From Candidatus Gottesmanbacteria bacterium (GTDB lineage Bacteria; Patescibacteriota; Microgenomatia; UBA10105; UBA927): a stretch of 64,000 nt of DNA. Below are positions 19,941 through 57,615 of this stretch, piece after piece; position 1 is the stretch's first letter, and every line of letters starts with the position of its first letter. The position numbers and the translations under genes are program-made. Location of the stretch: contig OY970230.1 of assembly GCA_963714095.1 (NCBI GenBank), positions 198,206-262,205 of the forward strand, written 5' to 3'. Below the pieces are notes generated by a model. That model was not told where the DNA came from, did not search any database, and saw only the letters and a list, made by a program, of their open reading frames with translations.

Positions 19941-20910
19941 GATGATTTTTATGCCATTTCCAGGCAGATGAAACGATAGTTTCTATATCTGAGTATTTTG
20001 GCCGCCAGCCGAATTCTTTCTTAAAATGTGTGGAGTCTGCAACGAGACTGTGCGGATCACCCGCCCGCCGCGGTGCCTCCCGCACGGCAAAATCTACCCC
20101 GGTCACCTTTTTAACCTCCGCGACAACTTCCTTATTTGTCATCCCATCCCCTGTTGCGAGGTTATATACGTCGGTTTTATGACCATGAGTTAATGCGTCC
20201 AGCGCCAATAAATGCGCCTCCGCAAGGTCCTCAATATGAATGTAGTCCCGCAGACACGACCCGTCGCGCGTCGGATAATCAGTTCCATACAGCAAAAATT
20301 CTTTCTGCTTTCCCATAGCCACACGGATCGCAACCGGAATAATATGTGTTTCAGGGAGATGATCTTCGCCGTTATCACCGCCCAGCGCTGCACCGCATGC
20401 ATTAAAATACCGGAGACTGATACTTCTTATATGATGCTGATAATCCGTCACGCGTAATAGCTCCTCGAAACACCATTTCGACAGCCCGTACGGGCTCGTG
20501 GGATTTTTTGCATGACTCTCCGGTATCGGAATAATTGTCGGATTTCCGTAGACGGCGGCAGTGGAAGAAAAAATAATTGTATCAACCCCATGCTCCTGCA
20601 TCACAGCGAGGAGTGTCATGGGCGCAATAATATTATTTTTCATGTATTTAATAGGATCCCGGACGGATTCTTCCACCATGAGGTATCCGGCAAAATGGAT
20701 GACTGCTTCAATCGAATATTTTGAAAAAATCGGCTCGAGCGTTGCTTTATCTTTAATATTACCCACGATAAGAGGCACCGTGGCCGGTAACGCCTGCCTG
20801 TGGCCGTATTCGAGGGAATCCACGACGATCGGGTGGTAGCCCCGCGCAACAAGCATCCGCACCATATTGCTTCCGATATAGCCGGCGCCTCCGGTAACAA
20901 GCACGTTCAT
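19900..20910 (-). CDS. galE: UDP-glucose 4-epimerase
   Basis: MNVLVTGGAGYIGSNMVRML Rossmann motif and YGLSKWCFE catalytic YxxxK. Length 336 aa, typical of GalE. Confidence 0.8.
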   Translation of the reverse strand: MNVLVTGGAGYIGSNMVRMLVARGYHPIVVDSLEYGHRQALPATVPLIVGNIKDKATLEPIFSKYSIEAVIHFAGYLMVEESVRDPIKYMKNNIIAPMTLLAVMQEHGVDTIIFSSTAAVYGNPTIIPIPESHAKNPTSPYGLSKWCFEELLRVTDYQHHIRSISLRYFNACGAALGGDNGEDHLPETHIIPVAIRVAMGKQKEFLLYGTDYPTRDGSCLRDYIHIEDLAEAHLLALDALTHGHKTDVYNLATGDGMTNKEVVAEVKKVTGVDFAVREAPRRAGDPHSLVADSTHFKKEFGWRPKYSDIETIVSSAWKWHKNHRDGYSPDPYAKKE

Positions 20911-25096: not shown

Positions 25097-25120
25097 AATG
25101 AATTATTTTAAAACATACCC

Positions 25121-26980: not shown

Positions 26981-26983
26981 ATG

Positions 26984-37773: not shown

Positions 37774-38823
37774 TCAATGTTTTCCTGCATTAAAACACAT
37801 ATCTGACAGAATCTGATCAATAGTATATGTATAATTCCACTTGGGGTAATGTCGTTTAAATTTATTTACATCAGATATATACCAAATATGATCTCCTATC
37901 CGTGGTCTATCAACATATCGAACACGAATTTTTTTGTCAAGTAATTTTTCAACTTTCCGGATTGCTTCAAGAATAGAAATACTGGCATGTCTGGATCCGC
38001 CGATATTGTAAACCTCACCGCTCCTTGGTTTCTTATATACCTCATAAAATGCTCTTATCAGATCCATTGAATGGATATTGTCGCGAACCTGTTTCCCCTT
38101 ATAACCCAGAATAGTATATTCCGTGTCTTCTTTGATGCATTTTACAAGATATGCTAAAAACCCGTGAAGTTTAACTGCGGAATGCATTGGTCCTGTAAGG
38201 CATCCGCCCCTAAACACGGTTGTTTTCAAGCCAAAATATCTTCCGTACTCCTGAACCATAAGATCAGCAGAGGTCTTTGAAACTCCAAAAATACTGTGTG
38301 TTGTATGGTCCAGACTCATCGTTTCATCAATTCCGTTATATAAGTGATGGCTGCGAGGAAGTTCCCATCGTGTTTGTTTTTCAATAAACGGCAGCAGGTT
38401 CGGGCTGTCACCATAAACTTTATTGGTTGAGGTAAATATAAATACCGCTTTCGGACAATATTTTCTGTATTGCTCTAATAAGAGAAGTGTCCCATATGCA
38501 TTAACCGAAAAATCCGTTAATGGTTCTTTTGCTGCCCAATCGTGTGACGGCTGGGCCGCCGTATGTATAATTAAATCAAAGGTATGATGAGAAAATAGAT
38601 TCCGTATTTTTATTTCATCACGTATATCAATTGTATGATGGTGATAATTACTAAATAATTTTATTAATCGTTTTTTGCTCCACGTTGTGTCACCATCTTT
38701 ACCAAAAAAATACGATCGCAGGTTATTATCTATACCATGAACGTCAAAATCTTTTGCACAAAAAAAAGCTACCGCTTCGGATCCAATAAGGCCATTCGAT
38801 CCTGTTATGAGAACTTTTTTCAT
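37774..38823 (-). CDS. NAD-dependent sugar-nucleotide epimerase, CDP-paratose 2-epimerase (RfbE)-like
   Basis: [16 protein letters not shown] Rossmann motif. [37 protein letters not shown] and EVYNIGG align with my recollection of the RfbE/CDP-tyvelose epimerase family. Confidence 0.6.
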
Positions 38824-40020: not shown

Positions 40021-41694
40021 TTAATATTCCTTGCTCAATTGCTCACGAACAACACCACGAATATCGTTTGATATATCCCTCACAATATGTATGTCTCCGA
40101 AATAAGATAATGCGATGATTTGGTCGGTTTTTAATAAAGAATTATGTTTAAATAGATCTATTAACGCGTGAGTGTCCGTAAAATATCCGAAACCCATACC
40201 GTTAACTTCTCGATATCCTTGTTGATTTACCCCCCACAAAAAAGCATCTTTTTGAGACAGCAATGCAGGGGACACTTTACCGCTTTTGTAGTACATGCAC
40301 ATCAGCGTATACCCTATCCCCTGTTGAAACGGTAAATGTTGATTCGGAATCAGATAAAAATTCTCCACGTTACCGGATATATAAAATATCGGGTTTTTGG
40401 GAGGCATAGGTATAATAGTTAAAACCTGTTTAATAACGGATTGGCGTTCCTCTGCAACAACAATCTGGCCTCCGACATCTCGTCTGATGAATTGTATATT
40501 CTTATACAAATATCCAAGGCAAATCAACAAAATTAAAGAAACAACGCTTCGACGTATAAACGCAGACGTTGACTTTAGCTTGCTTAAGAAAATATCCGTA
40601 TAGATACCAAGTAATATTCCCCCTCCCGCCATGCTGAAGTAAAAATATCGGGAATCCAAATAACTTGACCCTCTTATAAGGACGGCATATGGTAAAAAGC
40701 TACAAAGAATCAAAAATGTTCCAGCAAAAATTACATTCCTCTTGTCTTTCAATATAACTGCTGTAATTGCGATACCTATTAATAAAATAATCGAGACGGA
40801 AAGAAATAGCGTATCTGTATAATGAGAAATTAAACCCAACGACGGGCTTATTTTGACAACTAACGGGTAAGGAATAAATACCTGTGAAAAAGAAATAACC
40901 GGATAAAAAATTACATTCTTACTAATTTGTACAACACCACCGGAAGACTGACCGACAAAGGCACCAACTTGCGTCGATGGCTGCATGAATTGGATAATAT
41001 TGACAAAAACGATAATAGAAAAAAATAGTATTAATGGCAAAAACAGTTTGATAATTTTTCGTAATTTCAATTTCCCGCGATTGAGCAACAGAAGCAGTAC
41101 AGGCAAAAAAATAACCAGACTGATACTAAGCTCTTTCAAATAATAGGACATAATCAGGCATAATTGAGCCCAGACAACATATATATTTTTATTTTTCCGT
41201 ATATACATGACGGTCAATAAGATAGAAAACAAACTTAAAAAAGATGATGCAAGCGTAGGTGGACTCGTGGCAAACCAACTTAAGGCCTGAATTCCGTTAT
41301 ACGATGCAACAAAAAACATCCCTGCTACCCATGCGGCAATAAGATTTCCAGTGAGCAGACTGACAATCCCAAATACAAGAATTCCGTTTGCAGCGTGCAT
41401 AATGATAGAAAATAGGGCAAACGGCCATACCTGGAACGGGAAAATACGAAAAAATATGTAAAGGATTGGCACCGTCAGCGGGCGCCCAGTTCCCAATAAA
41501 AGCTGAAACCACGTTTCCCCTTTTAAGTTTCCGCTTAGACCGTTCGATAGGAACAACCCTAATCCAGCCCACTCGTCCTGTTGATAAAACGTTTTGAATA
41601 ATCCGCTGTATGCGGTGATAGTCAATACAAGGGAACACAGAGAAAAAATAATAAAAGATGTCTTTGAAAAACTAGACTGCTTCTTCATAATCAT
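40021..41694 (-). CDS. polytopic membrane protein (GT-C-like or polymerase candidate)
   Basis: About 13 hydrophobic helices. Early loop FYQQDEWAGLGLF acidic motif. Confidence 0.35.
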   Translation of the reverse strand: MIMKKQSSFSKTSFIIFSLCSLVLTITAYSGLFKTFYQQDEWAGLGLFLSNGLSGNLKGETWFQLLLGTGRPLTVPILYIFFRIFPFQVWPFALFSIIMHAANGILVFGIVSLLTGNLIAAWVAGMFFVASYNGIQALSWFATSPPTLASSFLSLFSILLTVMYIRKNKNIYVVWAQLCLIMSYYLKELSISLVIFLPVLLLLLNRGKLKLRKIIKLFLPLILFFSIIVFVNIIQFMQPSTQVGAFVGQSSGGVVQISKNVIFYPVISFSQVFIPYPLVVKISPSLGLISHYTDTLFLSVSIILLIGIAITAVILKDKRNVIFAGTFLILCSFLPYAVLIRGSSYLDSRYFYFSMAGGGILLGIYTDIFLSKLKSTSAFIRRSVVSLILLICLGYLYKNIQFIRRDVGGQIVVAEERQSVIKQVLTIIPMPPKNPIFYISGNVENFYLIPNQHLPFQQGIGYTLMCMYYKSGKVSPALLSQKDAFLWGVNQQGYREVNGMGFGYFTDTHALIDLFKHNSLLKTDQIIALSYFGDIHIVRDISNDIRGVVREQLSKEY

Positions 41695-45010: not shown

Positions 45011-46997
45011 CACGAATAGAAATATCTTTCCATTGACATGTGCCGAGATTCTGTTGAAATATCCGGATACCCTGAAGTTCCTCTCCTGCAAATTGTTCTA
45101 CTGCGCGTGAATCGGGATAGACATTTAGTTCACCGGCAAAATCCGCCGGTTGTTCAGAAAAACGATACCACGTAGTGCCGTCCGAGGAACCAAAAATATA
45201 CGCACTTGCGATAGGGTACGCACATTCGGGCTTAACAAAGTTAAACTCAATTCTTTTCACCCTGTTTTGCTTTTCCATACGCAATTCCAACAGATCAGAC
45301 GCCTTTTCCGTCACCTCAAACTTCTCATTTCTTTCATGGGTCATATCTACGCCGTGCGCAAGATGCAACGGGTCGTTTTTCCATATATACAGAAGCGGAA
45401 CACCATCAATCTGAACCGTATAAACCGGAGTGAGCATATTACGCAGAAAACGCATCCGGAAAAAATCATTGACGTTCAAACCCGGATATGTCAATTCCAT
45501 TACATATTCTCCTTGTTGCGCATAGAGGTCGGAATTCGTACCCACGAGGACTAAATCGTTCCGAAAATAGACCGTTGGAACCGCCGAAAAAATTGCGGTA
45601 CCGAGAGCTATCTTTGATCCGAGTTCGGCATGAGCATTAATCCAAAGAGCTCCCTGTTTATATGCATTTCCATACGTATTATTTGCGCCATCCAAACCAT
45701 ATTTCATGGCGCCGGGTAATCCTCCGATGAGTGCGTTATAATACACGTTTTCGTTCGGATGTAATTGAACCATTGTATAGATAATCGGTATATATCCCGA
45801 AATCGCAATCAGAATAATGATCTGCCGTATCGCCCGCCTTTTTTGCAATCGCATAACATGTTCAACTGCTACTCCACAAAGGAGTGATAAGGGGATCATA
45901 TACTCCATAATTTGACGCAGGCTGCCGCCATATAAATACTCGAGGGGAATTGTTGCCCGACCTACTGTAACAAAAATCCAAAGTAACCAAAGAAAAACCG
46001 CGCTGCTTTTACCGAAAGCATATTTCCAGCCAATAACACTCCCCGTCAAAAAAAACAGAAGCGTCGGAATTGGCATCGACGTGCATAACACTACTATGGT
46101 ATTCCAGTCTGAACAATGCACGAACCAGGGAATCGTACCAAAATAATATCCGCAGCTATTTGCGGCATTGGATACTCCCAAATAATACTGAATTACCTGG
46201 AATGTCTTCTGAATCGGCGATGACCACAATGCCGGATACGATATGAAAAACATCCCATATGCAATAATCGGAATAACGATACAGGAGGTAATAACTATCC
46301 GCCGGAGCGGTTTTTTCTCCCACCACCTCAGGGATATAAACCACGGAATGAGAATAAATACAGAAAATACTATATTGAACTTGGTCCCGAGGGATAATCC
46401 GAAAAAAATTGCCGAAACGAAAACCGGCCAATATTTTTTGTATTCAACGGCGAACCATAGAAAAAATAGCGCACCTGTATAATATGAAGCAACCAACGGA
46501 TCCTTAATATTAAAATGCTGTTCGGCAAACAACAGCGGCAACGTGATTAAGGAACACACCGAAAAAAAAGACGCTACAGGACCAAAAACCAGATATGACC
46601 AGCATCCGACTAGGACGACCATGAAGAGAGTCATAAGCAAAACATACACTTCATAGCTTTCAATATCTCCGACTAATCCAAATTTACCCCACAGAATTCT
46701 GTTTGTTGCCGCCATCAAAATGTCAGAAAGCGGCGGGTGACCAATAGTCATTTTCGTCGTCCATGCCCAATCTAACGGACTATTCTGGTAATAACTTAAC
46801 CTTTTGGATTTGAGATCAGGCTTGTCAGTTTTACCAGTTTCAAAAAATCGTAAATAGATATTTCCCCGGACCAAATGCTGATACGTGTCCCAATTTACAC
46901 CGTAATCGTAGATGGTTTTAAACGATAATACGGAAAAAACCGCGATAAGGAAGAGTGTCGGAAATATTCGCCATTTCATATTTTTTGCATACAGCAA
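44994..46997 (-). CDS. GT-C fold membrane glycosyltransferase-like with soluble C-terminal domain
   Basis: Early loop DYGVNWDTYQHLVRGNIYLRFF. About 13 TM in the first 400 aa. About 220-aa hydrophilic C-terminal domain. Confidence 0.45.
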   Translation of the reverse strand: MLYAKNMKWRIFPTLFLIAVFSVLSFKTIYDYGVNWDTYQHLVRGNIYLRFFETGKTDKPDLKSKRLSYYQNSPLDWAWTTKMTIGHPPLSDILMAATNRILWGKFGLVGDIESYEVYVLLMTLFMVVLVGCWSYLVFGPVASFFSVCSLITLPLLFAEQHFNIKDPLVASYYTGALFFLWFAVEYKKYWPVFVSAIFFGLSLGTKFNIVFSVFILIPWFISLRWWEKKPLRRIVITSCIVIPIIAYGMFFISYPALWSSPIQKTFQVIQYYLGVSNAANSCGYYFGTIPWFVHCSDWNTIVVLCTSMPIPTLLFFLTGSVIGWKYAFGKSSAVFLWLLWIFVTVGRATIPLEYLYGGSLRQIMEYMIPLSLLCGVAVEHVMRLQKRRAIRQIIILIAISGYIPIIYTMVQLHPNENVYYNALIGGLPGAMKYGLDGANNTYGNAYKQGALWINAHAELGSKIALGTAIFSAVPTVYFRNDLVLVGTNSDLYAQQGEYVMELTYPGLNVNDFFRMRFLRNMLTPVYTVQIDGVPLLYIWKNDPLHLAHGVDMTHERNEKFEVTEKASDLLELRMEKQNRVKRIEFNFVKPECAYPIASAYIFGSSDGTTWYRFSEQPADFAGELNVYPDSRAVEQFAGEELQGIRIFQQNLGTCQWKDISIRVIGFP

Positions 46998-47680
46998 TAA
47001 ATATTGGTAAACCCCCGTTCCTTTTGATATTCCTCGTCCAATTTTCGCTCAAAAAATCGGGCGAAAAATGGGGATCTGCGGAAAATCCATTTTGATATAT
47101 AAAGATTTAAAATCCAGGCTGTTTCCCACCATGCACCGGCACATTGGATTTTAACAATCTTCATGCCTGACCCCCGGACATACGCGATAATCGAACCTAC
47201 CGTATAATGCCTGTGGCCAGTTAACCAAAACGCCGGATCCAATAACGTGCTAATAATAAACCGGTGCGGCGTAGAAATATAACACGCACCACCCCGTTTC
47301 AGTACGCGGGAAATCTCCCGAAACATTATATATTCCGTTCCTTTTGGAATGTGCTCGAGAACTTCCCACGATACGACTGTATCAAACGAACGTTTTGGAA
47401 AAGGTATTACTGTGGCGCTGCCGACGATAAAATGAATTTTTTTGTCATAAATAGACCGCTTCGCCGTACGAAAATCTTCCTCAGTCAACTCAGTTCCCAC
47501 GATAGATCGGACGTTATTTTTTTTCGCAAATACCTCAAACCACCCATACCCGCAGCCGATATCGAGAACTTTTTTATATGTTATATCACCGATCCGTACA
47601 AAAGAAGCCGTAAAACGCAGACGTTCATGAAGCGGAGCATATGGCGATACCTTGGTGATATTTTTCATACAGGGCGACAA
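46976..47680 (-). CDS. class I SAM-dependent methyltransferase
   Basis: VLDIGCGYGWFEV motif I, VVSWEVLEHI and LKRGGACYISTP motifs. Confidence 0.75.
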   Translation of the reverse strand: MSPCMKNITKVSPYAPLHERLRFTASFVRIGDITYKKVLDIGCGYGWFEVFAKKNNVRSIVGTELTEEDFRTAKRSIYDKKIHFIVGSATVIPFPKRSFDTVVSWEVLEHIPKGTEYIMFREISRVLKRGGACYISTPHRFIISTLLDPAFWLTGHRHYTVGSIIAYVRGSGMKIVKIQCAGAWWETAWILNLYISKWIFRRSPFFARFFERKLDEEYQKERGFTNIYCCMQKI

Positions 47681-47720
47681 ATAACTCCTTGCTTATACCT
47701 ATGATTCGCACAAAATACCC

Positions 47721-49031
47721 TTATCGCAGGTTTTGTAATCGGAAAAATGATTCCAATGTTTTTTCTATATATCCGATCATTTGAACTGTAATACCGGGCC
47801 AGACTCCTATCCAAAATCCGTAATTCATAACCGTGTCTGAATTTTTCATAGATCCGGAAATACGTATATCTTTTCTACCGATATAGGCGGGGTGACGAAG
47901 AAGGTTTCCGGCAAACAGATTTCGGGTCCCGATGTTATGTTCCTCCAAATACTTGACCAATTCCAGCCGTGTAAATGGCGCAGTATCTTTGACAACCAGC
48001 ATAAATCCGAACCAGCAGGGGTCAGAGACCGGATCCCACTCGGGCAAAATAAAATATTTCTCATATTTTTTGAAAAAATCATATAGAAGGGTGAAATTTC
48101 TCTTACGCTTTTTTATAAATACGGGAAGTTTTTTTAACTGGGCAACGCCGATAGCCGCCTGAAAATCAGTCAGCTTGAGATTGTAACCGATTTGAGAATA
48201 AATATATTTATGATCGTATCCTTTCGGCAGTTCCCCAAGCTGCCAGCCAAAACGCCGTTTGCATGTATTGTCCTTCCCCGTATCGCACCAGCAATCCCTC
48301 CCCCAATCACGGAACTGACGCAGAGCCTTATGAATCAGAGGATTATTCGTCACAATCGCCCCGCCTTCGCCCATGGTAATCTGATGTGCCGGATAAAAAG
48401 AAAAGGTCCCGATATGGCCAAACGTGCTTAACTTTTTGCCCTGATATGTCGATCCGAGCCCGTCGCAGCAATCCTCAATAAACCATAGATTATACTTCAC
48501 TACGAGCCGCATAATGCCCTCTATGGGCAAAGGATTCCCGAGGGTATGTGCAAGCATGATAACCCTTGTTTTCTTCGTTATAGCCTGTTCTATAGCCTCA
48601 CACGTAGGATTTCTTGTCCCCAAATCAACATCTACGAATACCGGCACGCATTTATTCTGAATAATAGGATTAACGGTCGTCGGAAAGGCACACGCTGCGG
48701 CGATGATTTCATCTCCCGGCTTGAGTGCTTTTTTGCCGAATACGGAAGACGTGAGGGCGGTCAATGCCAGCAAGTTGGCGGAAGATCCGGAATTTACCAG
48801 TGTTACGTATCGTATGCCGAGATACGAAGCAAAATTCTTTTCAAACTTTTTGGCAAACTCCCCCTCCGTCCACCACCCGTCCAGCACTGCTTCCGCACCA
48901 CTGAGCAATTCCTGTTGGTCAAACACTTTCCCGGAAACCGGTACTGAAGACTTTCCGGGTTTAAATGGACGGGTGGAATATTTCTGACGTGCGTATGAAC
49001 GAATTAGCCCTGCAATATTTGCTGGCATCAT
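47721..49031 (-). CDS. PMP-dependent nucleotide-sugar 3-dehydrase, E1 (CDP-6-deoxy-D-xylo-4-hexulose-3-dehydrase, RfbH/DdhC)-like
   Basis: DegT-family fold with NSGSSANLLALTAL. The normally conserved Schiff-base Lys is replaced by His (SFYPAHQITMGEGG), the hallmark of E1/ColD dehydrases. Cys cluster DCWCDTGKDNTCKRRF is consistent with the E1 Fe-S site. 436 aa. Confidence 0.7.
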   Translation of the reverse strand: MMPANIAGLIRSYARQKYSTRPFKPGKSSVPVSGKVFDQQELLSGAEAVLDGWWTEGEFAKKFEKNFASYLGIRYVTLVNSGSSANLLALTALTSSVFGKKALKPGDEIIAAACAFPTTVNPIIQNKCVPVFVDVDLGTRNPTCEAIEQAITKKTRVIMLAHTLGNPLPIEGIMRLVVKYNLWFIEDCCDGLGSTYQGKKLSTFGHIGTFSFYPAHQITMGEGGAIVTNNPLIHKALRQFRDWGRDCWCDTGKDNTCKRRFGWQLGELPKGYDHKYIYSQIGYNLKLTDFQAAIGVAQLKKLPVFIKKRKRNFTLLYDFFKKYEKYFILPEWDPVSDPCWFGFMLVVKDTAPFTRLELVKYLEEHNIGTRNLFAGNLLRHPAYIGRKDIRISGSMKNSDTVMNYGFWIGVWPGITVQMIGYIEKTLESFFRLQNLR

Positions 49032-49954
49032 ATATTTTTCTTCAAAATCGACTGAATTGTTTCTATAATTTGGTTGACAGTCAAACCGTTGGCCTCTCTC
49101 ATATATTCCTGCAAACCCATACCTTTCGTAAACCTATCGGGTACACCGATTCGCCTGAAAGGAATTGCATTACCGTGTTCCGCGAGTATTTCCGATACTG
49201 CGCTTCCTAATCCTCCGATTACACTGTGTTCCTCCAAAGTAAATATCGCTTTCGTGTATTTTGCGGAATCCAAAATCAATTGCTGATCTATGGGTTTTAT
49301 TGTATGCATACTGATCAACCGTCCCTGCATTCCCTGAATGGCAAGTTTCTCAACCACATCTATACCGCGTGCGACAAGCGTTGATGTTGCAATAAGACAA
49401 TAGTCCTTTCCTTTCCTCAGGATAATACCCTTACCAATTTTAAAATGCGGCGGCTTATCATACAAACGAGGTTCTCCGGCTTTCCCGATCCGCAGATAGA
49501 CGGGACCTTTGTGCATCAAGGCGGCCCGCGTCGCTAGCTCCGCCTCTATCGGATCTGCCGGGCAGACTATTGTCATGTTCGGGAGGGTTCGCATTATACC
49601 GATATCTTCCAGACTATGATGTGTATGTCCGTAGGGACCGTATGCGAATCCCGCCCCAACACCGACAATTTTAACATTCAAATTTTGATAGCAAATATCA
49701 TTCCTCACCTGTTCAAAATTCCGCATGGTAACAAACGGAATAATAGAATAGATAATAGGAATTTTTCCCTCAAGCGCCATACCCGCCGCGACCCCTGTCA
49801 TGTTCTGCTCGGCAATCCCCATATTAATATATTGCCGGGGCACCTCATGAATATACTTTTCAAAAACGGAATATCCCAAATCTCCTGTAAGCAGGATGAT
49901 CCGTCTATCTTGTTTTGCCAACTGAAGTATCGTTTTCGTAAATGCTATTCTCAT
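49028..49954 (-). CDS. transketolase, C-terminal (pyrimidine-binding) subunit
   Basis: ITISSHVADRIKKYY... hmm not applicable; actual motifs: GIAEQNMTGVAAGMALEG, HTHHSLEDIGIMRTLPNMTIV. 308 aa. Confidence 0.8.
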   Translation of the reverse strand: MRIAFTKTILQLAKQDRRIILLTGDLGYSVFEKYIHEVPRQYINMGIAEQNMTGVAAGMALEGKIPIIYSIIPFVTMRNFEQVRNDICYQNLNVKIVGVGAGFAYGPYGHTHHSLEDIGIMRTLPNMTIVCPADPIEAELATRAALMHKGPVYLRIGKAGEPRLYDKPPHFKIGKGIILRKGKDYCLIATSTLVARGIDVVEKLAIQGMQGRLISMHTIKPIDQQLILDSAKYTKAIFTLEEHSVIGGLGSAVSEILAEHGNAIPFRRIGVPDRFTKGMGLQEYMREANGLTVNQIIETIQSILKKNI

Positions 49955-50784
49955 ACTGCTTCCAAATCCTTTAATGCTTTATCAAACTCCTTTTCCGTCG
50001 GAGCTTTATACTGGGACGAAACTGTGCCTATATACCTGGCTACACCCCCAAGACCTTTTATCGTATGAGCGATAATTACCGATGGCTTTCCGTTTCGGAA
50101 TGGAAGAGTTCTAAACGTTTGGATAACTTTCTTAATATTATGCCCGTCTACCTCCGCGACTTCCCAATCAAAACTTTGCCATTTTTCTTTCAACGGTTCC
50201 AGATCTAACACATCTTTGGTGAATCCGAAGCCCTGCAGCTTATTATAATCGACGATAGCAATAAGGTTATCCAGCTTATGATATCCGGCAAACAATATAG
50301 CTTCCCATGTAGAACCTTCATCACATTCACCGTCGGACAGTACAGCGAATACTCGATAAGCCTTTTTATCCTGTTTCCCTACCCACGCCATTCCTGCAGC
50401 CATGGGTAACCCGTGGCCCAGAGAACCGGACGAAATTTCAATACCCGCGATACCTCGTACCGAATGTCCCGGCAATAATCCGCCGTCATGCTCATAGCCT
50501 TTCAACAGTTTTTTATCAAAGAAGCCACGTTCTGCAAGTACGGCATACAGAGCTTTAGCGTCATGCGCTTTGCTGAATACCAGCCTGTCCCGACGTGGAT
50601 TCACCGGATCGCCGGGATATACCTTCATTATCCGAAAATACAACGCTACCAAAATTTCCACACACGATAGCGCGCCGCCCGTATGTGCACTCTGAGCCAG
50701 ATAGCTCATCGTCAGAATATCCCGACGGATATCTCTTGCAATAGTTTCTAACGTTTTTCTTTTACTACGGGTAATTGTTCTCAT
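49951..50784 (-). CDS. transketolase, N-terminal (ThDP-binding) subunit
   Basis: GSLGHGLPMAAGMAW and VLSDGECDEGSTWEA ThDP-binding motifs. The track start is a TTG; trimmed to the ATG of MRTITRS. Confidence 0.8.
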   Translation of the reverse strand: MRTITRSKRKTLETIARDIRRDILTMSYLAQSAHTGGALSCVEILVALYFRIMKVYPGDPVNPRRDRLVFSKAHDAKALYAVLAERGFFDKKLLKGYEHDGGLLPGHSVRGIAGIEISSGSLGHGLPMAAGMAWVGKQDKKAYRVFAVLSDGECDEGSTWEAILFAGYHKLDNLIAIVDYNKLQGFGFTKDVLDLEPLKEKWQSFDWEVAEVDGHNIKKVIQTFRTLPFRNGKPSVIIAHTIKGLGGVARYIGTVSSQYKAPTEKEFDKALKDLEAV

Positions 50785-50796
50785 CTTCAGTATCAA

Positions 50797-50921
50797 TATA
50801 ATAATTATTTATCGTTTTACGCATGATCAACCTCACTATACTTTTTTAAACCCTGCATTCGTTTCAGAAACATTTTCCTCTTCGTTCTATCAGGGGATGC
50901 ACGCTTCTCTGCTTTTCTTCG
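50797..50921. promoter_or_regulatory. intergenic region upstream of the split-transketolase pair
   Basis: 125-nt non-coding gap between the aminotransferase stop and the transketolase start. Candidate internal promoter; no motif verified. Confidence 0.2.
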
Positions 50922-52034
50922 TTACCGATATCGAATAAGTTTTGTGAGCTTCTCACAAATGAATGCAACGTCCGATTCTGTTATATCGGCGGCAGACGGC
51001 AGGTTGAATCCATATTTCTCTACTTTTGCGGCTTCAGGATTAGGGAATCGGCGCTCGTACATGGGAAATCCGCTCATCCGGGGAAACGCGACCCTTCCAT
51101 GAATATTCCATCGTTCCAATTTACTTACCAAATCCTTATTGGATATTTTTTTTGAAGTGAGTAAAGCGGAGGGATATGCGTAATTACTGCGGCATCCGGG
51201 CCTTTCTTTAATGAGTTTTAATTCATGTACATCTTTCAGCCGTGAGTAATACCAGCCGAATATTCTCCGTTTTTTTGCAACGAGTTCTTCTATGCGCTCG
51301 ACCTGAGCAAGCGCCAGGGCTGCTGTCACATTTGCCATTTGATATTCATATCCCAGTGAATCACACCAAAAATTGAATTTCCTATTCGTTCTGCCCATGT
51401 TACTGAAAAGAATAGCTTTATCAAGGTATGCCTTATTATTTGTAATAAACATCCCGCCTTCACCAGAAACGGCGATTTTTGCCCCATGAAATGAATAGGC
51501 GCCGACGTCACCGAACGTGCCCACTTTCTTTCCTTTATATAAGGAGCCGAGCGAAGGAGCCGCATCTTCAATAACTTTAAGTTTATACTTTCCGGCAATT
51601 CGCATTATTTCATCCATTTCCGCCGGATGCCCGAAGGTATGAACGAGCATAATACCTTTCGTCTTTTTTGTAATTGCGCGTTCTACGGCTTTGGGATCAA
51701 TACACCATGTATCAGGATCAATATCAACAAATACAGGAGTTGCACCCGTATATGCGATCACGTGAGCGGTTGCGGCCCAACTGGTATCCACACATATTAC
51801 CTCGTCACCTTTTTGAAAACCGCAGACCAAACATGCAAGATGGAGTGAATGTGTTGCACAAAAACCGGCTAAAGAATACTTCGCACCGGTATAGTCACAC
51901 ATACGTTTTTCTAGTTTCTTTATATGCTTGTCAAATGTTGAGTACCACCCTGTCTTAACAGCATCGACAACATAATCAACTTCTTTTTGAGTCATCGATG
52001 GACCTGCAAAACTAATCCTTTTATATTTTTTCAT
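50922..52034 (-). CDS. DegT/DnrJ/EryC1/StrS-family PLP-dependent nucleotide-sugar aminotransferase
   Basis: Lys retained in AYSFHGAKIAVSGEGG. VIEDAAPSLGS motif. 370 aa. Confidence 0.8.
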   Translation of the reverse strand: MKKYKRISFAGPSMTQKEVDYVVDAVKTGWYSTFDKHIKKLEKRMCDYTGAKYSLAGFCATHSLHLACLVCGFQKGDEVICVDTSWAATAHVIAYTGATPVFVDIDPDTWCIDPKAVERAITKKTKGIMLVHTFGHPAEMDEIMRIAGKYKLKVIEDAAPSLGSLYKGKKVGTFGDVGAYSFHGAKIAVSGEGGMFITNNKAYLDKAILFSNMGRTNRKFNFWCDSLGYEYQMANVTAALALAQVERIEELVAKKRRIFGWYYSRLKDVHELKLIKERPGCRSNYAYPSALLTSKKISNKDLVSKLERWNIHGRVAFPRMSGFPMYERRFPNPEAAKVEKYGFNLPSAADITESDVAFICEKLTKLIRYR

Positions 52035-52719
52035 ACGGTAATTTCATAACTACACTATATCGTTTTATTGTTCCTTTATAACCTTTGGGTGCATTTTGCC
52101 ATTCAATTCTATCAGATTTAACAATCCTGATCATGGGCGTCCGTTTCACTTCAGTAAAATCAAGCTTTCGGTAAAGGCGAATGGCTCTTATATTATCAGA
52201 CGTTGTAGACAGCATATACGTTTTAATTCCAAATTCAACCCTGCCCCAACATATCATATGACGTATCGCATCTTCTATAATTCCGGGGTATAAATTCACA
52301 CCACGCACAATATTATCTATTTCGCAGATACGTTTTTGAAAATTAAAACGATACAAGCCGATATGACCGATGTACCGGTTTTTTACTTTTATCATAAATA
52401 AAATCCTGTCGGGTTCATTCACAACTTTATCGCGCAACCATTTTTCGGTTCCTTCCAAGGTAACCGGGAATATTGCAGGAAACCATTGCTCATGCTTTTT
52501 TCTCCATAACGCGAGTAGTTTAATAATTTTTTTATCAGTTCTCTGGTTGTCCGTAACGAGAACTAAATAATAACGAATTTTTCTAAAAATTATTTTAATT
52601 TGTAATTTTTTTCCGTGTTTAAGCAATGAAATTTTGTCTTTCACCAAACTGCTGATATCTCGCTCCGTTAATTTCATAATCAACCTAATGCTCTGTCTTT
52701 TATTCTTTCGATATATCAA
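52021..52719 (-). CDS. putative GNAT-type N-acetyltransferase (amino-sugar N-acylation)
   Basis: About 200 aa. IGHIGLYRF...CEIDNIVRG...AIRLYRKLDF resembles the GNAT acetyl-CoA-binding region. Lies directly downstream of the aminotransferase, as WecD does to WecE. The true start is probably internal (MKLTERD). Confidence 0.45.
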   Translation of the reverse strand: MIYRKNKRQSIRLIMKLTERDISSLVKDKISLLKHGKKLQIKIIFRKIRYYLVLVTDNQRTDKKIIKLLALWRKKHEQWFPAIFPVTLEGTEKWLRDKVVNEPDRILFMIKVKNRYIGHIGLYRFNFQKRICEIDNIVRGVNLYPGIIEDAIRHMICWGRVEFGIKTYMLSTTSDNIRAIRLYRKLDFTEVKRTPMIRIVKSDRIEWQNAPKGYKGTIKRYSVVMKLPYEKI

Positions 52720-52723
52720 CTAA

Positions 52724-53686
52724 TTATTTCAAGATAGAATTATACCAGCGGCGGATTAAAGGAAGTGTGTTTTTAATCGAATATGTAGGTCTCCATCCCA
52801 GATTGATAATCTTCCCTGCATTCAAATGCTGGTACGGAATTTCGTTCTTCGCCGAGTTTTCTATAACATACGGTATTTTTCTTTTTAGTATCCTTTCTGT
52901 TTGCCTGATGAGAGCTATCACTGAACACGAGTCGCTGGAGGATAAATTAAATGCCTCCCCATTAGTTTTATCTCTATGTTCAAGAAGGAACAAATAGCCG
53001 GATACTACATCTTCAACGTAAATATAGTCCCGGACATATGAACCGTCACTTCGAATAACCAATTTTTCTTTCGTGACAACTGCTTTCATTATTCCCGGAA
53101 TAATCCGTGAAAAATTCAGATCACCTTCTCCGTAAATATTTCCTGCCCGTGTAACGACGATAGGCAAATGGTATGTTTTTGCGTATGCGTGTGCGAGAAG
53201 ATCCGTTGCCGATTTAGAAACCTCATATGGATGGTCGCCTCTCAAAGGATCCGTCTCGATATAGGGTTTCCTGCTTTTTCCGTAGCTTTTATCAGACGAT
53301 GCAACAATGACTCCTTTCACATGAGTAAAAAGTCGTGCCGCATCGAGAATATAGGTGGTACCCATGATATTAGTTTCAATTGTTTCCACGGGATTTTCGT
53401 AGGCAGTAGGCACTATTGCCTGAGCGGCTAAGTGGAAAATATAGTCAATTTCATATTTTGACACGATATCAAAAACCCGATCTTTATCTTTAAGGTCACA
53501 TGAAACAAGAACGGTATTTTTTGATAACCGTTCGGTCATGAAATATGAACGGGGGTCTAATGATCGAAACGGCACAAATACCGTTGCATGCCTCCCTAGT
53601 AAGGCTTTCACAAGATGACTTCCAACAAACCCCGTTCCGCCTGTGACCAGAATGTTCTTTCCTGTTAATCTTTCCATATTTTCCAT
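52724..53686 (-). CDS. extended-SDR nucleotide-sugar dehydratase/reductase (CDP-glucose 4,6-dehydratase or CDP-dideoxyhexose synthase candidate)
   Basis: ILVTGGTGFVGSHL Rossmann motif. FHLAAQAIV, SSDKSYG and catalytic YEVSK. 320 aa. Adjacent to the cytidylyltransferase. Confidence 0.55.
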   Translation of the reverse strand: MENMERLTGKNILVTGGTGFVGSHLVKALLGRHATVFVPFRSLDPRSYFMTERLSKNTVLVSCDLKDKDRVFDIVSKYEIDYIFHLAAQAIVPTAYENPVETIETNIMGTTYILDAARLFTHVKGVIVASSDKSYGKSRKPYIETDPLRGDHPYEVSKSATDLLAHAYAKTYHLPIVVTRAGNIYGEGDLNFSRIIPGIMKAVVTKEKLVIRSDGSYVRDYIYVEDVVSGYLFLLEHRDKTNGEAFNLSSSDSCSVIALIRQTERILKRKIPYVIENSAKNEIPYQHLNAGKIINLGWRPTYSIKNTLPLIRRWYNSILK

Positions 53687-54441
53687 TCAGGATTCCGTTT
53701 CCATAATGTATTAAGACGTTCCAAATCCGCATATGTATCCATCGATTGCCAAAAACCTTTATGGACAAAAAGAGATAGCTCCCGGTCTTTAACAAGCCTT
53801 TTTAGTGCCTCATGTTCATATTCAGCCGGCCGCAGATAATTAAAAAACTTTTTATCAAATACCATAAATCCGCCGTTTACCCAATCCTGTAAAACAGGTT
53901 TTTCGACAAACTCCGTTACCCTGTGTTTAACATTTTGCCGGACCATTCCGTATTTACTTTTCGGATACACGCCAGTTATGGTACCGATTGTTTTTTGTTT
54001 TCTGTGAAACTGAACTAATTGCCGGATATTGATATTAGACACACCGTCCCCGTACGTAACCATAAAATCTTTATCAGTTTTCGGGATATAATCTTTTACA
54101 CGTATTATTCTTTCACCCGGAAGTGTCCCCTCTCCCGTATCTACAAAGGTAATTTTGAAATTATCGGCGGCAGATGGGTTTTTATGAAAAATCGCTGAGC
54201 CGGATTTTGTGGATAACGTAAAATTTTGTGAAAAATATTTTTGATTTAAAAAATACTCCTTAATCATATCCCCCTTATACCCGAGGGCAATGATAAAATC
54301 ATTAAACCCGTAGTACGCATACATTTTCATGATATGCCACAGGATTGGTTTATTGCCGACCAACACCATGGGTTTTGGTTTAAACTCTGTTTCCTCCTTT
54401 AATCTGTATCCTATACCGCCACATAAAATAATCGTCTTCAT
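53665..54441 (-). CDS. rfbF: glucose-1-phosphate cytidylyltransferase
   Basis: MKTIILCGGIGYRLKEETEFKPKPMVLVGNKPILWHIMKMYAYYGFNDFIIALGYKGDMIKEYF matches RfbF/DdhA closely. 258 aa, the expected length. Confidence 0.8.
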   Translation of the reverse strand: MKTIILCGGIGYRLKEETEFKPKPMVLVGNKPILWHIMKMYAYYGFNDFIIALGYKGDMIKEYFLNQKYFSQNFTLSTKSGSAIFHKNPSAADNFKITFVDTGEGTLPGERIIRVKDYIPKTDKDFMVTYGDGVSNINIRQLVQFHRKQKTIGTITGVYPKSKYGMVRQNVKHRVTEFVEKPVLQDWVNGGFMVFDKKFFNYLRPAEYEHEALKRLVKDRELSLFVHKGFWQSMDTYADLERLNTLWKRNPEWKIWKD

Positions 54442-54498
54442 ATTTAGTGGCCTATTATAACATTTATTGTCTTTTCGAAAAGTTTTACCGGGGCAGTT

Positions 54499-55608
54499 TT
54501 AGATGTGTATTGCTTTATTTAATAAATGGAGACTTTGTTTAACGGCATCTGTCCAACGCAGGTTGGCTACCCACTTTCTGGCGTTTATTTGATATTCTTT
54601 ATAGTGTAATTTGTCTCTATATAATTTCACCGCCTCCCGTGCCATTTCTCGGGGCGAGCAGCTTTCGATAACCATCCCTGTTTTTCCATGAATGACAACG
54701 TCCCTCAATCCGGGAACGTTATAAACAATTGCAGGTGTGCCTACGGACGCAGCCTCAAGAACAACAAGTCCCCACCCCTCTTTCACAGATGCGTGAAGAA
54801 GAAGGTGTGCCCGTGCCATACGGTTATATTTTTCTTTTTCAGAAACGTTTCCAAAAAAGATTACCCGTTCTTTTATACCGTATTCCGTTATCATTCTTTT
54901 CAATTCATCGATATACTCAGGCTCACCGCCTCCGATAATCCATAACACTGCATCCGTCTGTTCACGCACAATAAACGAAAACGCTTTAATAACCTCCTCG
55001 ATACCCTTCATACGGACGACACGGGATACAAACAGGTATGTAGGATGTATTTCTTTATTTTTCGAGGTTATATGAAACCGGCCGTGTACGGTAATCGGAC
55101 AGGGAATATTTACGCATTGTGATCGGGGAATACCGCGGGATACCAGTTCATCAATCGTCGACGGCGCATCCGTCCAAAAATAACAGTGACGATACAATCG
55201 GAAACACCATCGTTCCAGAAATTTTCCGATGACGTTTTTGGGAAACGAAAACATATAATCCCATATTTCTCCTGCTATCTCATGAATAAAAACGACGACC
55301 GGTTTCCCAGTGAAGAGCGTAGAAAAAAAAGGAAATCCGTGCACCTCGTCGACAATGATATCAAAAGCATTCCTGTGAGTAAGCAAGTAAAATGGGACGT
55401 ACAGATATATTGTGAGTGAGCCCGCCCGCCGGATAAAACGGACACTCTGAACCGTTTCTTCTTTTTTAGCACCGGAATATGCGGCAGTGAGCCATGTCAC
55501 ATCATTCCCCGCTGCCACCCACCCCTTTGCATGCTCAAAGGTCACTACTTCGGCCCCTCCGGATTTCGGATGACGAACATCACGCCAATTAAGTATTAAT
55601 ATGCGCAT
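54499..55608 (-). CDS. glycosyltransferase family 4
   Basis: MRILILNWRDVRHPKSGGAEV N-domain and EGWGLVVLEAASVGTPAIV C-domain. Confidence 0.8.
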   Translation of the reverse strand: MRILILNWRDVRHPKSGGAEVVTFEHAKGWVAAGNDVTWLTAAYSGAKKEETVQSVRFIRRAGSLTIYLYVPFYLLTHRNAFDIIVDEVHGFPFFSTLFTGKPVVVFIHEIAGEIWDYMFSFPKNVIGKFLERWCFRLYRHCYFWTDAPSTIDELVSRGIPRSQCVNIPCPITVHGRFHITSKNKEIHPTYLFVSRVVRMKGIEEVIKAFSFIVREQTDAVLWIIGGGEPEYIDELKRMITEYGIKERVIFFGNVSEKEKYNRMARAHLLLHASVKEGWGLVVLEAASVGTPAIVYNVPGLRDVVIHGKTGMVIESCSPREMAREAVKLYRDKLHYKEYQINARKWVANLRWTDAVKQSLHLLNKAIHI

Positions 55609-55616
55609 AATTCTTC

Positions 55617-56807
55617 CTATTTATGTCCGGCAGTAAATACCTTTATGATTGTTTGGATTTCTCCAGTCGTCAGTTCCGGATTATTGCCAAAATATAATCC
55701 TTGTTCATGTATGAGCTTCACGTTGACGCATTCGCGGAAATTACCCTTCACGTATTTGGTAAAAAACGGTTGTTCTGTCATATCGCCGCCGACAACCGGC
55801 CTGATTTCAATCCTGTTACCGCAGGCCTTTACTAACGAATCCCGGATTGCGGTTGATTTGCATATAACGGGCACGGCAAAATTTGAAATTGTATCCATGT
55901 GATCATATCGTATAGGATAGTAATCCGGCGACTGATAAATTCTTCCGGCAATTTTTTTAAAATTATTCTGCCGTTTCTTAATTATTTCAGGGAGAAATTT
56001 AATTTGAATTTGTCCTAGATACCCGGTAATTTCCGTCGGACGGAAATTATACCCTAAATCATAGAACGTATACCGCCCATAAAACGACGGGTTTGCAAGA
56101 AATTTTCTCCGGGCCGTCTGTTCCGGAACTGACAGATTTCTATCCCAACCGTGAGCCCGCACCATGATGAGCATACTCGCGAGATCACTGTTATCTGTAC
56201 AAACCGCACCTCCTTCGACTGTTGACATGTGGTGTCCAACGTAAAACGAAAATGTACCTGCCTCTCCGAAATTACCGAGTTTTTTGGCATGATAAACAGA
56301 TCCCAGAGATTCACAGTTGTCTTCTACGAACAGCATGCCGCGTTTATTGCAGAGATCCATAACTTTATCAATATCGTCACATAATCCGAGAAGGTTTGTA
56401 AGGAGAAGTGCTTTTAGTTTATACCTAGCTAATGTGTTTAACAGGGTTCTACTGGATACATTCAGGGTGTCTAGTTCCACGTCAACTGGTACCGGCTTCA
56501 GACCCAACTGAATAAGCGGCATAACGTTGGTAGACCATGTGACGGCGGAAAATCCGACCATGTCTCCTTTGTGAATTTTACCTAGATTAAGAAGGGCCTG
56601 AATAAGCGCTAAATTTGCGGAACTGCCGCTGTTGAGCAATACACAGTATTTTTTCCCCTGCCAGAAAGCAAATTGTTTCTCAAATGCTTCGCACTCCTTA
56701 CCGAAACTTAACTGTTTGGCGACCAATAAAAATTGGATCAGCTTCCGTTTTGTTTCGTTTTCTTTATAAAATGTCGATTTTATAAGTGTAATCATGTTAA
56801 TGAACAA
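55617..56807 (-). CDS. DegT-family His-variant sugar dehydratase (ColD/E1-like 3-dehydratase paralog)
   Basis: NSGSSANLALIQAL. Lys replaced by His in FSFYVGHHMSTVEGG. 396 aa and no C-terminal Cys cluster, resembling ColD-type GDP-4-keto-6-deoxymannose 3-dehydratase. Confidence 0.6.
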   Translation of the reverse strand: MFINMITLIKSTFYKENETKRKLIQFLLVAKQLSFGKECEAFEKQFAFWQGKKYCVLLNSGSSANLALIQALLNLGKIHKGDMVGFSAVTWSTNVMPLIQLGLKPVPVDVELDTLNVSSRTLLNTLARYKLKALLLTNLLGLCDDIDKVMDLCNKRGMLFVEDNCESLGSVYHAKKLGNFGEAGTFSFYVGHHMSTVEGGAVCTDNSDLASMLIMVRAHGWDRNLSVPEQTARRKFLANPSFYGRYTFYDLGYNFRPTEITGYLGQIQIKFLPEIIKKRQNNFKKIAGRIYQSPDYYPIRYDHMDTISNFAVPVICKSTAIRDSLVKACGNRIEIRPVVGGDMTEQPFFTKYVKGNFRECVNVKLIHEQGLYFGNNPELTTGEIQTIIKVFTAGHK

Positions 56808-56823
56808 AATTGCGCGTCGTAAA

Positions 56824-57615
56824 TTACCCTATGTTTATGCGGAAATTCAATTCCGGATCAAACCGCCACTTTCGTTTGCTTGCATCATCATAATAATGAA
56901 GAATACGCAAACGATAAAATACTGCAAGAGTATCATTCAGCGTATTGTAAATGACCGGCAGAAATTTTCTCCAGGAAATGCTCGATTTTGCGGAAAATAA
57001 ATTAATTTCTATCGGCGCTTCATATATTTTTCTGTATCCTAAATAATATGCCACGGCAAGTATTTCAATATCGAAGGCAAATTGTTTTACGAGGAGTCTC
57101 GGAAGAACATCTTCTAGAAGCTTTCGCCTGTATATTTTCATCCCCACCTGCGTATCACGCACATTTAGTCCGAATAATATTCTCGTAATTTGTTGATATA
57201 CCCACGAAATAATTTTTCGTATATACGGATACTCTACTTTTGAATCCGGGTGGCGTTTACTTCCGATAATTGCATCCGCATGTTGAAACTCAAATTCTGC
57301 AAGCATGAGAGGAAGTGCTTCCGGCTTAAGATCTCCCCCCGCATCCATAAAACCGACAACATCTCCTTTTGCCTGAGAAAAACCGAATCGCACTGCATAT
57401 CCCTTTCCGTGATTGGTTTGATAACCTGTTATATGAACCCGAGAATCATGTATTGTTTTAATTTCTTCTGTGCTCTTATCCAATTTTCCGTCAATGACCG
57501 GAATAATCTCAAAATCTCTATGCATCTTTGATAATACGTTGATGATATCCGTGATATCACGTTTAATTGTTTTTTCCTGTTTATAGACCGGAATAATAAG
57601 ACTAAATTTTTTCAT
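56824..57615 (-). CDS. GT2 polyprenol-phosphate glycosyltransferase-like
   Basis: FSLIIPVYKQEKTIKRDI ... VIDGKLDKST ... GFMDAGGD pattern. Confidence 0.7.
   Translation of the reverse strand: MKKFSLIIPVYKQEKTIKRDITDIINVLSKMHRDFEIIPVIDGKLDKSTEEIKTIHDSRVHITGYQTNHGKGYAVRFGFSQAKGDVVGFMDAGGDLKPEALPLMLAEFEFQHADAIIGSKRHPDSKVEYPYIRKIISWVYQQITRILFGLNVRDTQVGMKIYRRKLLEDVLPRLLVKQFAFDIEILAVAYYLGYRKIYEAPIEINLFSAKSSISWRKFLPVIYNTLNDTLAVFYRLRILHYYDDASKRKWRFDPELNFRINIG

Follow-up and report, generated by a model that had tools for sequence, protein, structure and literature searches.

A split transketolase with altered acceptor-site residues beside an E1-type 3-dehydratase gene in a glycan locus of Candidatus Gottesmanbacteria

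In the biosynthesis of yersiniose A, an enzyme dependent on thiamine diphosphate (ThDP) attaches a two-carbon unit to C4, after which YerF processes the side-chain ketone by reduction (PMC12247030). YerE and ErwE are ThDP enzymes that branch exactly CDP-3,6-dideoxy-4-ketohexose (PMC12247030). Split-gene transketolases have been proposed for the hydroxyacetyl branching of keto sugars in the miharamycin and amipurimycin pathways of Streptomyces, where they are uncharacterised in vitro, and a 2025 review lists only 13 further split-transketolase branching candidates, all from Streptomycetes (PMC12247030). The subject here is a split transketolase encoded next to an E1-type 3-dehydratase in a stretch of 64,000 nucleotides from Candidatus Gottesmanbacteria, referred to below as the window (assembly GCA_963714095.1, contig OY970230.1, positions 198,206-262,205 of the forward strand). 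The two proteins belong to a module on the minus strand (46976-57615), in which the named genes are long open reading frames (ORFs) with strong family matches. About even chances are given to the reading that this module makes a C4-branched CDP-3,6-dideoxy sugar by means of a rebuilt transketolase and without a dedicated E3 reductase.

The window module resembles the yersiniose A pathway of Yersinia pseudotuberculosis (DdhA-D, YerE, YerF) in its early steps and in its predicted acceptor, CDP-3,6-dideoxy-4-keto-D-glucose. YerE is an acetolactate-synthase-like decarboxylase, whereas the ThDP enzyme of the window is a split transketolase. The window also lacks ddhD, has an aminotransferase and a GNAT acetyltransferase that may replace YerF, and comes from a Microgenomates-like member of the Candidate Phyla Radiation (CPR) rather than an enterobacterium. 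The miharamycin and amipurimycin clusters, compared by description and not by sequence, share with the window a two-gene transketolase beside keto-sugar-forming enzymes, but they are Streptomyces nucleoside-antibiotic clusters with a different sugar. Their split transketolases are the nearest precedent for that of the window. A preliminary description of this DNA had compared it to yersiniose and aldgarose-type pathways. The idea of a two-carbon transfer is supported, but YerE, which is acetohydroxyacid synthase (AHAS)-like, and the aldgarose enzyme, which is pyruvate dehydrogenase E1 (PDH-E1)-like, are analogous in function only. The kind of pathway, ThDP-dependent branching of CDP-3,6-dideoxy-4-ketohexose, is already known. 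Gene content and residue comparisons support three new features: a predicted transketolase-family branching enzyme with a naturally re-engineered pocket, no E3 and a CPR host. A literature search found no published link of a transketolase with rfbH/ddhC or with CPR glycan loci.

The split transketolase and its gene neighbours

The N-terminal, ThDP diphosphate-binding subunit (277 amino acids, aa) is encoded at 49951-50784 and matches Transketolase_N. The C-terminal subunit (308 aa), with the pyrimidine-binding and C domains, is encoded at 49028-49954 and matches Transket_pyr and Transketolase_C. These matches bear out the split transketolase pair that had been read at 49028-50784. The gene for the C subunit overlaps that for the N subunit by 4 bases and the E1 gene by a further 4. 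Among solved structures, the split transketolase of Carboxydothermus hydrogenoformans is the closest (N subunit, 200 bits to PDB 6yak; C subunit, 244 bits to 6yaj). Against the transketolase model NF004559, the N half scores 234.9 bits and the C half 198.6 bits, relative to a cutoff of 488 that is set for the full-length protein. The N subunit is not of the PDH-E1 alpha/beta type, with 111.7 bits to Transketolase_N versus 19.2 bits to E1_dh (cutoff 22).

Active-site residues were mapped by alignment with E. coli TktA and are given in E. coli numbering. H26, H66, H100, D155 and N185 are kept in the N subunit and R358, S385 and H473 in the C subunit. The ThDP/metal-binding motif and the catalytic histidines of transketolase are retained, with GDG reading SDG. 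The changed residues are R91E, G154S, I189G and H261Q in the N subunit and F434I, H461G, L466Y, D469Y and R520K in the C subunit. Among these, R91E, I189G, H261Q, H461G, L466Y, D469Y and R520K are losses of the residues with which real transketolases bind the sugar phosphate or the acceptor. The C. hydrogenoformans enzyme has the same two-subunit architecture and the same ThDP-binding residues, but it has the canonical R91, I189, H261, H461, D469 and R520 where the window pair has E, G, Q, G, Y and K. H461 and R520 are presumably the phosphate ligands of transketolase, and D469 presumably the ligand of the C2 hydroxyl. E91, S154 and Q261 are present in all 120 of the closest N-subunit homologues, and H261Q is peculiar to the subclade of the window transketolase. 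Homologues of the N subunit with 63-73% identity are found in Levybacteria, Gottesmanbacteria, Woesebacteria and Patescibacteria. The variant transketolase constitutes a large and conserved family; it is not a gene in decay. In E. coli transketolase, mutation of S385, D469 and R520 shifts activity from phosphorylated, alpha-hydroxylated acceptors to non-phosphorylated or aromatic ones, and D469 pairs with R91 (PMC5073344).

A scan for the C subunit, with one genome per species, yielded 80 loci, cited below by L numbers, in which ORFs were called and matched to the window proteins and the active-site columns were read. The loci counted are those with G461 and Y469 (Leu in one) and usable flanks (L002, L005, L008-L013, L015 and L016). 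They are spread over Patescibacteria, Saccharibacteria, Gottesmanbacteria, Verrucomicrobiae and Elusimicrobia. A DegT-type 3-dehydratase with His in place of the usual Lys lies within a few kb in 10 of these 10 loci and is directly adjacent in most. No such neighbour is present in the approximately 66 other split transketolase loci, comprising 20 canonical loci (R-S-H-D-H-R) and approximately 46 with other variants (Fisher p = 1e-12, with no correction for relatedness). H461, D469 and R520 are kept in all 20 canonical pairs.

The two transketolase subunits and the dehydratase are the only genes common to all 10 loci. Six of the linked dehydratases contain the Fe-S cysteines (window, L005, L011, L013, L015 and L016) and five do not (L002, L008, L009, L010 and L012). 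L011 repeats the full gene order: RfbE-like short-chain dehydrogenase/reductase (SDR), cytidylyltransferase, SDR, aminotransferase, GNAT, transketolase N, transketolase C and E1. In L005, a C-methyltransferase and an SDR stand in place of the aminotransferase and GNAT. The order GT4 glycosyltransferase-cytidylyltransferase-SDR is kept in L005 and L009 at 30% identity. The six closest transketolase pairs form a clade in 100 of 100 neighbor-joining (NJ) bootstraps.

Two further clusters carry G461 transketolases. In the Lachnospiraceae cluster (L034, 796-11536), the genes encode a radical-SAM/SPASM protein, a cytidylyltransferase-like protein, an SDR, transketolase N, transketolase C, an FkbM methyltransferase, a GT8 glycosyltransferase, a sugar N-formyltransferase and an aminotransferase. 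In the Bryobacterales cluster (L031, 3572-13590), they encode an aminotransferase, transketolase N, transketolase C and a fused Bac_transf/PglF-like dehydratase. Clusters for amino-deoxysugars (NDP-4-keto-6-deoxysugar clusters) without a 3-dehydratase are therefore a repeated setting of G461 transketolases.

Two other features of the sample were observed. Approximately 29 of the 80 split pairs form another non-canonical class, with R358A and D469A (signature A-S-H-A-H-R; L029, L033, L036, L039 and approximately 25 more), whose hosts are Clostridia, Spirochaetes, Bacteroidota and Deltaproteobacteria. In two relatives (L005, 1-2774 and 17784-20837; L002, 2634-5499), genes for SIS_2, a GHMP kinase, a HAD/NTP-transferase, a TAL_FSA aldolase and a PDH-E1-alpha-like protein lie no more than 10 kb from the module; none of them is present in the window.

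Dehydratase, CDP-glucose and tailoring genes

The gene at 47721-49031 (436 aa) is assigned, with high confidence in the gene identities, to the E1/RfbH/DdhC type of CDP-4-keto-6-deoxyglucose 3-dehydratase, which uses pyridoxamine phosphate (PMP) and a [2Fe-2S] cluster. It scores 650.5 bits against the NCBIfam RfbH model NF011936 (cutoff 423) and 521 bits over residues 5-432 against Y. pseudotuberculosis E1 (PDB 3bcx), with approximately 60% identity. The motif FSFYPAHQITMGEGG places His216 on His220 of Yersinia E1, and the H220K mutant (3bb8) has Lys in the same column. The [2Fe-2S] cysteines (C189-x57-C247-x1-C249-x7-C257) have the exact spacing of the Yersinia cysteines and align on them. 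The E1 hallmark His and the cysteine cluster claimed in the preliminary description are therefore both present at the aligned positions. A misread motif, with the Lys one residue away from the His, was rejected because the His of the E1 gene aligns on E1 His220 and that of the ColD-like gene described below on ColD His188.

The domain scan for an E3 reductase covered the approximately 55 main predicted genes of the window; the other ORFs of at least 100 aa, mostly overlapping or antisense, lay outside it. No ferredoxin (Fer2), FAD_binding_6 or NAD_binding_1 domain was found in the genes scanned. A regular-expression scan in six frames of the window and the 10 related loci found no plant-type C-x4-C-x2-C...C motif and no pair of RxYS and GxGxxP. 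The precomputed Pfam annotation of L002 and L005 is likewise without E3. The absence of E3 from the window had been noticed before; it extends to the 10 related loci and is therefore a conserved property of the module. SpnQ is an E1-type dehydratase without a dedicated E3, for which general ferredoxin or flavodoxin reductases serve (PMC8987622). Like the window enzyme, it is a PMP/[2Fe-2S] 3-dehydratase whose cluster lacks a dedicated E3. It differs in its dTDP-2,6-dideoxy substrate, its place in the forosamine step of the spinosyn pathway and its actinomycete host, and the window enzyme is much more similar to the CDP-specific E1 of Yersinia. Among the same scanned genes, no AHAS-like TPP_enzyme_N/M/C architecture of the YerE type was found.

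The glucose-1-phosphate cytidylyltransferase gene (RfbF/DdhA-like, 53665-54441, 258 aa) aligns over its full length with TIGR02623 (272.8 bits, E = 2.7e-81, residues 1-256 on 1-255 of 255; curated cutoff 300.25). Its homologues, with 45-71% identity, lie within the same module in L002, L005, L009, L011 and L016. The adjacent SDR (52724-53686, 320 aa) is short, divergent and RfbG-like. It scores 189.5 bits against TIGR02622, under the curated cutoff of 278.45, and its best solved match is 1rkx, a CDP-glucose 4,6-dehydratase. SDKSYG of the window SDR corresponds in the alignment to SDKCYD of 1rkx, whereas TDE stands here in the dTDP enzyme and neither of the two in the epimerase. The YxxxK motif reads YEVSK. 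The assignments as cytidylyltransferase and CDP-glucose 4,6-dehydratase are probable, not proven, and to that extent the formation of CDP-4-keto-6-deoxyglucose suggested earlier for this pair holds.

The aminotransferase (50922-52034, 370 aa; DegT_DnrJ_EryC1, 330 bits) contains YSFHGAKIAVSGEGG, an HGAK motif in which the Lys is present. It is followed by a GNAT N-acetyltransferase (52021-52719, with the gene callers' start at approximately 52677) that matches Pfam Acetyltransf_3 and Acetyltransf_1. The earlier reading of a bona fide aminotransferase followed by a GNAT is thus correct. The closest solved relatives of the aminotransferase (231-237 bits) are a sugar aminotransferase and GDP-perosamine synthases, enzymes that aminate C4. 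GNAT homologues are present in L002, L008 and L011. In two metagenome proteins of 485 aa (P0090 and P0111), a GNAT part that is 35-40% identical to 52021-52719 is fused to a transketolase N part of the same variant clade (66-67% identity). This fusion is weak evidence, because the GNAT and transketolase genes are adjacent in L011. Either ring C4 or the side chain may be the site at which the aminotransferase and GNAT act: their homology points to the former, and the recurrence of their genes beside transketolase genes in other phyla to the latter.

Directly downstream of E1, a gene for a methyltransferase dependent on S-adenosylmethionine (46976-47680, 234 aa; Methyltransf_11 and Methyltransf_25) probably provides a tailoring step. 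Weakly similar methyltransferases are present in L005, L009 and L013. In another assembly of the same organism (L001, 6666-7366), this gene is broken into an ORF of 172 aa and a fragment; the window copy is intact.

An RfbE-like SDR (37774-38823, minus strand) lies 9 kb from the module. Its best solved matches are the CDP-tyvelose 2-epimerases 9rl0 (135 bits) and 1orr (123 bits), in agreement with the identity first proposed. Its homologues adjoin the module in L011 (71% identity) and L013 (68%), which makes it a probable member of the pathway. The module contains no 4-ketoreductase of the RfbS/RfbJ (paratose-synthase) type, and the other SDRs of the window are only GalE, UXS/ArnA-like and RfbE-like. 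The standard tyvelose branch that had been suggested for this gene is therefore unlikely.

The second His-variant DegT protein (ORF to 56807, probable ATG start at 56795; 55617-56795) has ColD (PDB 2gms, 210 bits) as its best match. ColD is the GDP-4-keto-6-deoxymannose 3-dehydratase of colitose synthesis. The first His of FSFYVGHHMSTVEGG aligns on ColD His188, and the protein has, like ColD, His for Lys and no Fe-S cysteine motif; L, V and A occupy the cysteine columns. Across Patescibacteria, members of the family share 65-82% identity. Unlike ColD, its close homologues lie among glycosyltransferases and not in colitose-type operons. In three contexts of these homologues (L089, L090 and L091), the neighbours are glycosyltransferases, GT-C proteins and methyltransferases. 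No nucleotidyltransferase, 4,6-dehydratase or transketolase is present in any of the three, and no SDR in two of them. A colitose pathway was rejected, because the window has no GDP-mannose 4,6-dehydratase (GMD) or ColC: none of its SDRs reaches the gmd or fcl model, and the ManC-like gene is 49 kb away. The likeness to ColD stated in the preliminary description stands, but membership in the module probably does not, as the loci of the homologues lack nucleotide-sugar and transketolase genes. More likely, the ColD-like gene serves a pathway separate from the CDP module, for another sugar.

Predicted pathway and competing explanations

In the proposed pathway, 53665-54441 would convert glucose-1-phosphate and CTP to CDP-glucose, and the SDR at 52724-53686, with its S-D-K and YxxxK residues, would convert CDP-glucose to CDP-4-keto-6-deoxyglucose. 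E1 (47721-49031) would then remove the C3 hydroxyl to give CDP-4-keto-3,6-dideoxyglucose. These three steps have sequence support. No dedicated E3 is encoded at the locus, so, as for SpnQ, E1 would obtain its two electrons from a general ferredoxin or flavodoxin system whose genes lie elsewhere. The split transketolase may then add a ThDP-bound two-carbon unit to the C4 carbonyl of CDP-4-keto-3,6-dideoxyglucose. This unit would be hydroxyacetyl from a ketol donor, or possibly acetyl from pyruvate, and the product would be a 4-C-branched 3,6-dideoxyhexose with a new side-chain ketone. The predicted acceptor has neither a C3 hydroxyl nor a sugar phosphate, which fits the loss of D469, R91, H461 and R520. 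The aminotransferase, GNAT and methyltransferase may tailor the product, either by amination and acetylation of the side-chain ketone or through a parallel 4-acetamido branch from the 4-keto sugar. The RfbE-like SDR may epimerise C2. Beyond the identification of the enzymes, every chemical step is inferred from sequence. The dehydratase linkage and the rebuilt pocket support the earlier prediction of an uncommon 3,6-dideoxy, acetamido and/or two-carbon-branched hexose made without a dedicated E3.

Several points weigh against branching by the transketolase. Activity on a keto sugar has been characterised biochemically for no transketolase (PMC12247030). Both enzymes assigned to the first two steps, the cytidylyltransferase and the 4,6-dehydratase, fall under their curated NCBIfam cutoffs. 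The nearest solved relatives of the aminotransferase aminate ring C4, the same carbonyl that the transketolase would need, and the two enzymes may therefore compete or serve different products. The loci are phylogenetically related, and the 10 of 10 count and the p value therefore overstate independence. The 12 dehydratase-linked transketolases do not form an exclusive clade (3 of 200 with the unweighted pair group method with arithmetic mean and 0 of 100 NJ bootstraps). The smallest clade that holds them includes a Clostridia group (R-G-G-L-H-Y; L018-L026 and L030) without deoxysugar neighbours. Around one of its members (L025, 4500-16400), the genes encode an amidohydrolase, a ROK protein, a class IV aminotransferase and a GT87 glycosyltransferase, and a check of the neighbourhoods of this sister group found no sugar genes. 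The linkage therefore characterises several lineages of a wider G461 transketolase group rather than one clean family.

In one competing explanation, no branching takes place, and the cytidylyltransferase and SDR feed a fork. The aminotransferase and GNAT would make a CDP-4-acetamido-4,6-dideoxy (or 3,4,6-trideoxy) hexose, E1 would lead to a 3,6-dideoxyhexose, and the transketolase-like pair would have some supporting role in the locus other than C-C bond formation on the nucleotide sugar. The aminotransferase is nearest to C4 aminotransferases such as GDP-perosamine synthase, forked O-antigen pathways are generally known to be common, and L005, L010, L012, L013, L015 and L016 contain no aminotransferase or GNAT, so that these genes are accessory. 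Two such ordinary products are nevertheless unlikely. They leave the strict transketolase-dehydratase linkage and the rebuilt acceptor pocket unexplained, the adjacency of aminotransferase and transketolase recurs in unrelated phyla, and the module has no RfbS/RfbJ-type 4-ketoreductase to complete an unbranched 3,6-dideoxyhexose. The lack of this reductase and of E3 also bears on a standard abequose, paratose or tyvelose cluster whose E3 and 4-reductase lie outside the window. E1, the cytidylyltransferase, the dehydratase-like SDR and the RfbE-like SDR are all present, as such a cluster would have them. However, neither reductase is found in the 46 kb downstream and 6 kb upstream of the module or in the 10 related loci, and the additional conserved transketolase has no role in abequose, paratose or tyvelose pathways. 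The standard cluster is largely refuted and retains only a very small probability.

Two other explanations concern the transketolase itself. It could be a housekeeping enzyme of the pentose phosphate pathway, perhaps supplying sedoheptulose-7-phosphate for heptose, that is merely located in a glycan locus. Split transketolases are generally known to be common in CPR genomes, and heptose-pathway genes (SIS, GHMP kinase, HAD/NTP-transferase) and TAL_FSA lie near the module in L002 and L005. However, the residues for the substrate phosphate and the C2 hydroxyl (H461, R520, D469 and R91) are replaced, whereas 20 of 20 canonical pairs keep them and none of these has a dehydratase neighbour. Heptose genes are absent from the main predicted window genes scanned, and the E1 gene shares 4 bases with the transketolase C gene. 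An ordinary central-metabolic transketolase, the possibility left open earlier, is improbable and was rejected on the replaced phosphate and acceptor residues and the linkage to 3-dehydratases. Alternatively, the transketolase could replace E3, with the ThDP-bound carbanion from a ketol or 2-oxoacid being oxidised and two electrons passing to the [2Fe-2S] cluster of E1. The absence of E3 from the window and all 10 related loci is in keeping with this, transketolases are generally known to oxidise the ThDP intermediate with artificial acceptors such as ferricyanide, and a loss of acceptor-binding residues would suit an enzyme that needs no aldose acceptor. But the same subclade (100 of 100 bootstraps) pairs with Fe-S dehydratases (window, L005 and L011) and with Cys-less ones (L002, L008 and L009), which have no Fe-S cysteines and so cannot take electrons in this way. 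No Fe-S or flavin motif is present in the transketolase subunits. Electron donation to E1 is highly improbable and was rejected on these two grounds.

With branching by the transketolase as the preferred reading, a more specific proposal is tentative. The transketolase, rebuilt at seven pocket residues, would be the enzyme by which CPR bacteria and several other phyla naturally attach carbon branches to nucleotide-activated 4-keto-3,6-dideoxyhexoses. In the window, the ketone of the hydroxyacetyl (or acetyl) side chain would be transaminated and N-acetylated to give a 4-C-(1-acetamido-2-hydroxyethyl)-3,6-dideoxyhexose, a type of sugar never described, on the surface of an episymbiotic ultra-small bacterium.

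The surrounding locus and its significance

The minus strand carries every gene between 35.7 and 64 kb. In the module, the intergenic gaps are small or the genes overlap: the SDR and cytidylyltransferase genes overlap by 22 bases, the gap between E1 and the methyltransferase gene is 40 bases, and the widest gap, preceding the transketolase N gene, is 137 bases. Two glycosyltransferase genes complete the module. A GT4 gene (54499-55608; Glycos_transf_1 and Glyco_transf_4) is directly upstream of the cytidylyltransferase gene, and a GT2 gene (56824-57615; Glycos_transf_2, 86 bits) resembles polyprenyl-phosphate sugar transferases, with weak ArnC/PgfS-type NCBIfam matches. The best reading of the module is a co-transcribed CDP-deoxysugar gene set within a surface-glycan locus of approximately 60 kb.

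The window is a single large glycan locus with approximately 19 Leloir glycosyltransferase genes and four GT-C-like membrane proteins. It also contains genes for a flippase-like protein, a Bac_transf initiating transferase, a ManC-like protein, GalE (19900-20910) and acetyltransferases. The only housekeeping genes (HisRS, RecO and a histidine phosphatase) are all at the left end. Scans of the 64 kb with tRNA and Rfam models gave no matches, and a promoter/terminator scan of the window was no better than shuffles (40 versus 36 and 16 versus 13). GC skew is negative in almost every 2 kb bin of the window, and nearly all genes are on the minus strand. The G+C content is 36-38% at 34-44 kb and 44-49% at the window ends. 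In the middle of the locus (22814-33356), five large ORFs in a row (760, 619, 580, 986 and 576 aa) have no Pfam match at E <= 1e-5. Three further large ORFs are without a Pfam match, two at this threshold (12240-15233 and 18327-19940) and one at the default of 1e-3 (40021-41694). One GT4 is seemingly divided between two ORFs, one for the N domain (8261-8782) and one for the C domain (7786-8271), and an ORF with only the GT4 N domain (17765-18325) abuts a complete GT4 (16635-17768).

Branching of keto sugars by ThDP enzymes is established for the YerE-like and PDH-like types, and transketolase-type branching is so far only a proposal from Streptomyces clusters. The window locus and its relatives amount to a large family that is broad in phylogeny, is marked by a clear sequence signature and has a substrate that is both defined and accessible, namely the product of E1; the proposal is therefore directly testable. 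The natural changes D469Y, R520K and H461G mirror positions that have been engineered for non-phosphorylated acceptors, and these enzymes may be ready-made biocatalysts for tertiary alcohols. In metabolic reconstructions of CPR bacteria, a "transketolase" call is taken as evidence for the pentose phosphate pathway; a paralogue of the window type would be a false positive. The locus also indicates unusual surface sugars on the cells of CPR bacteria, whose envelopes mediate attachment to the host.

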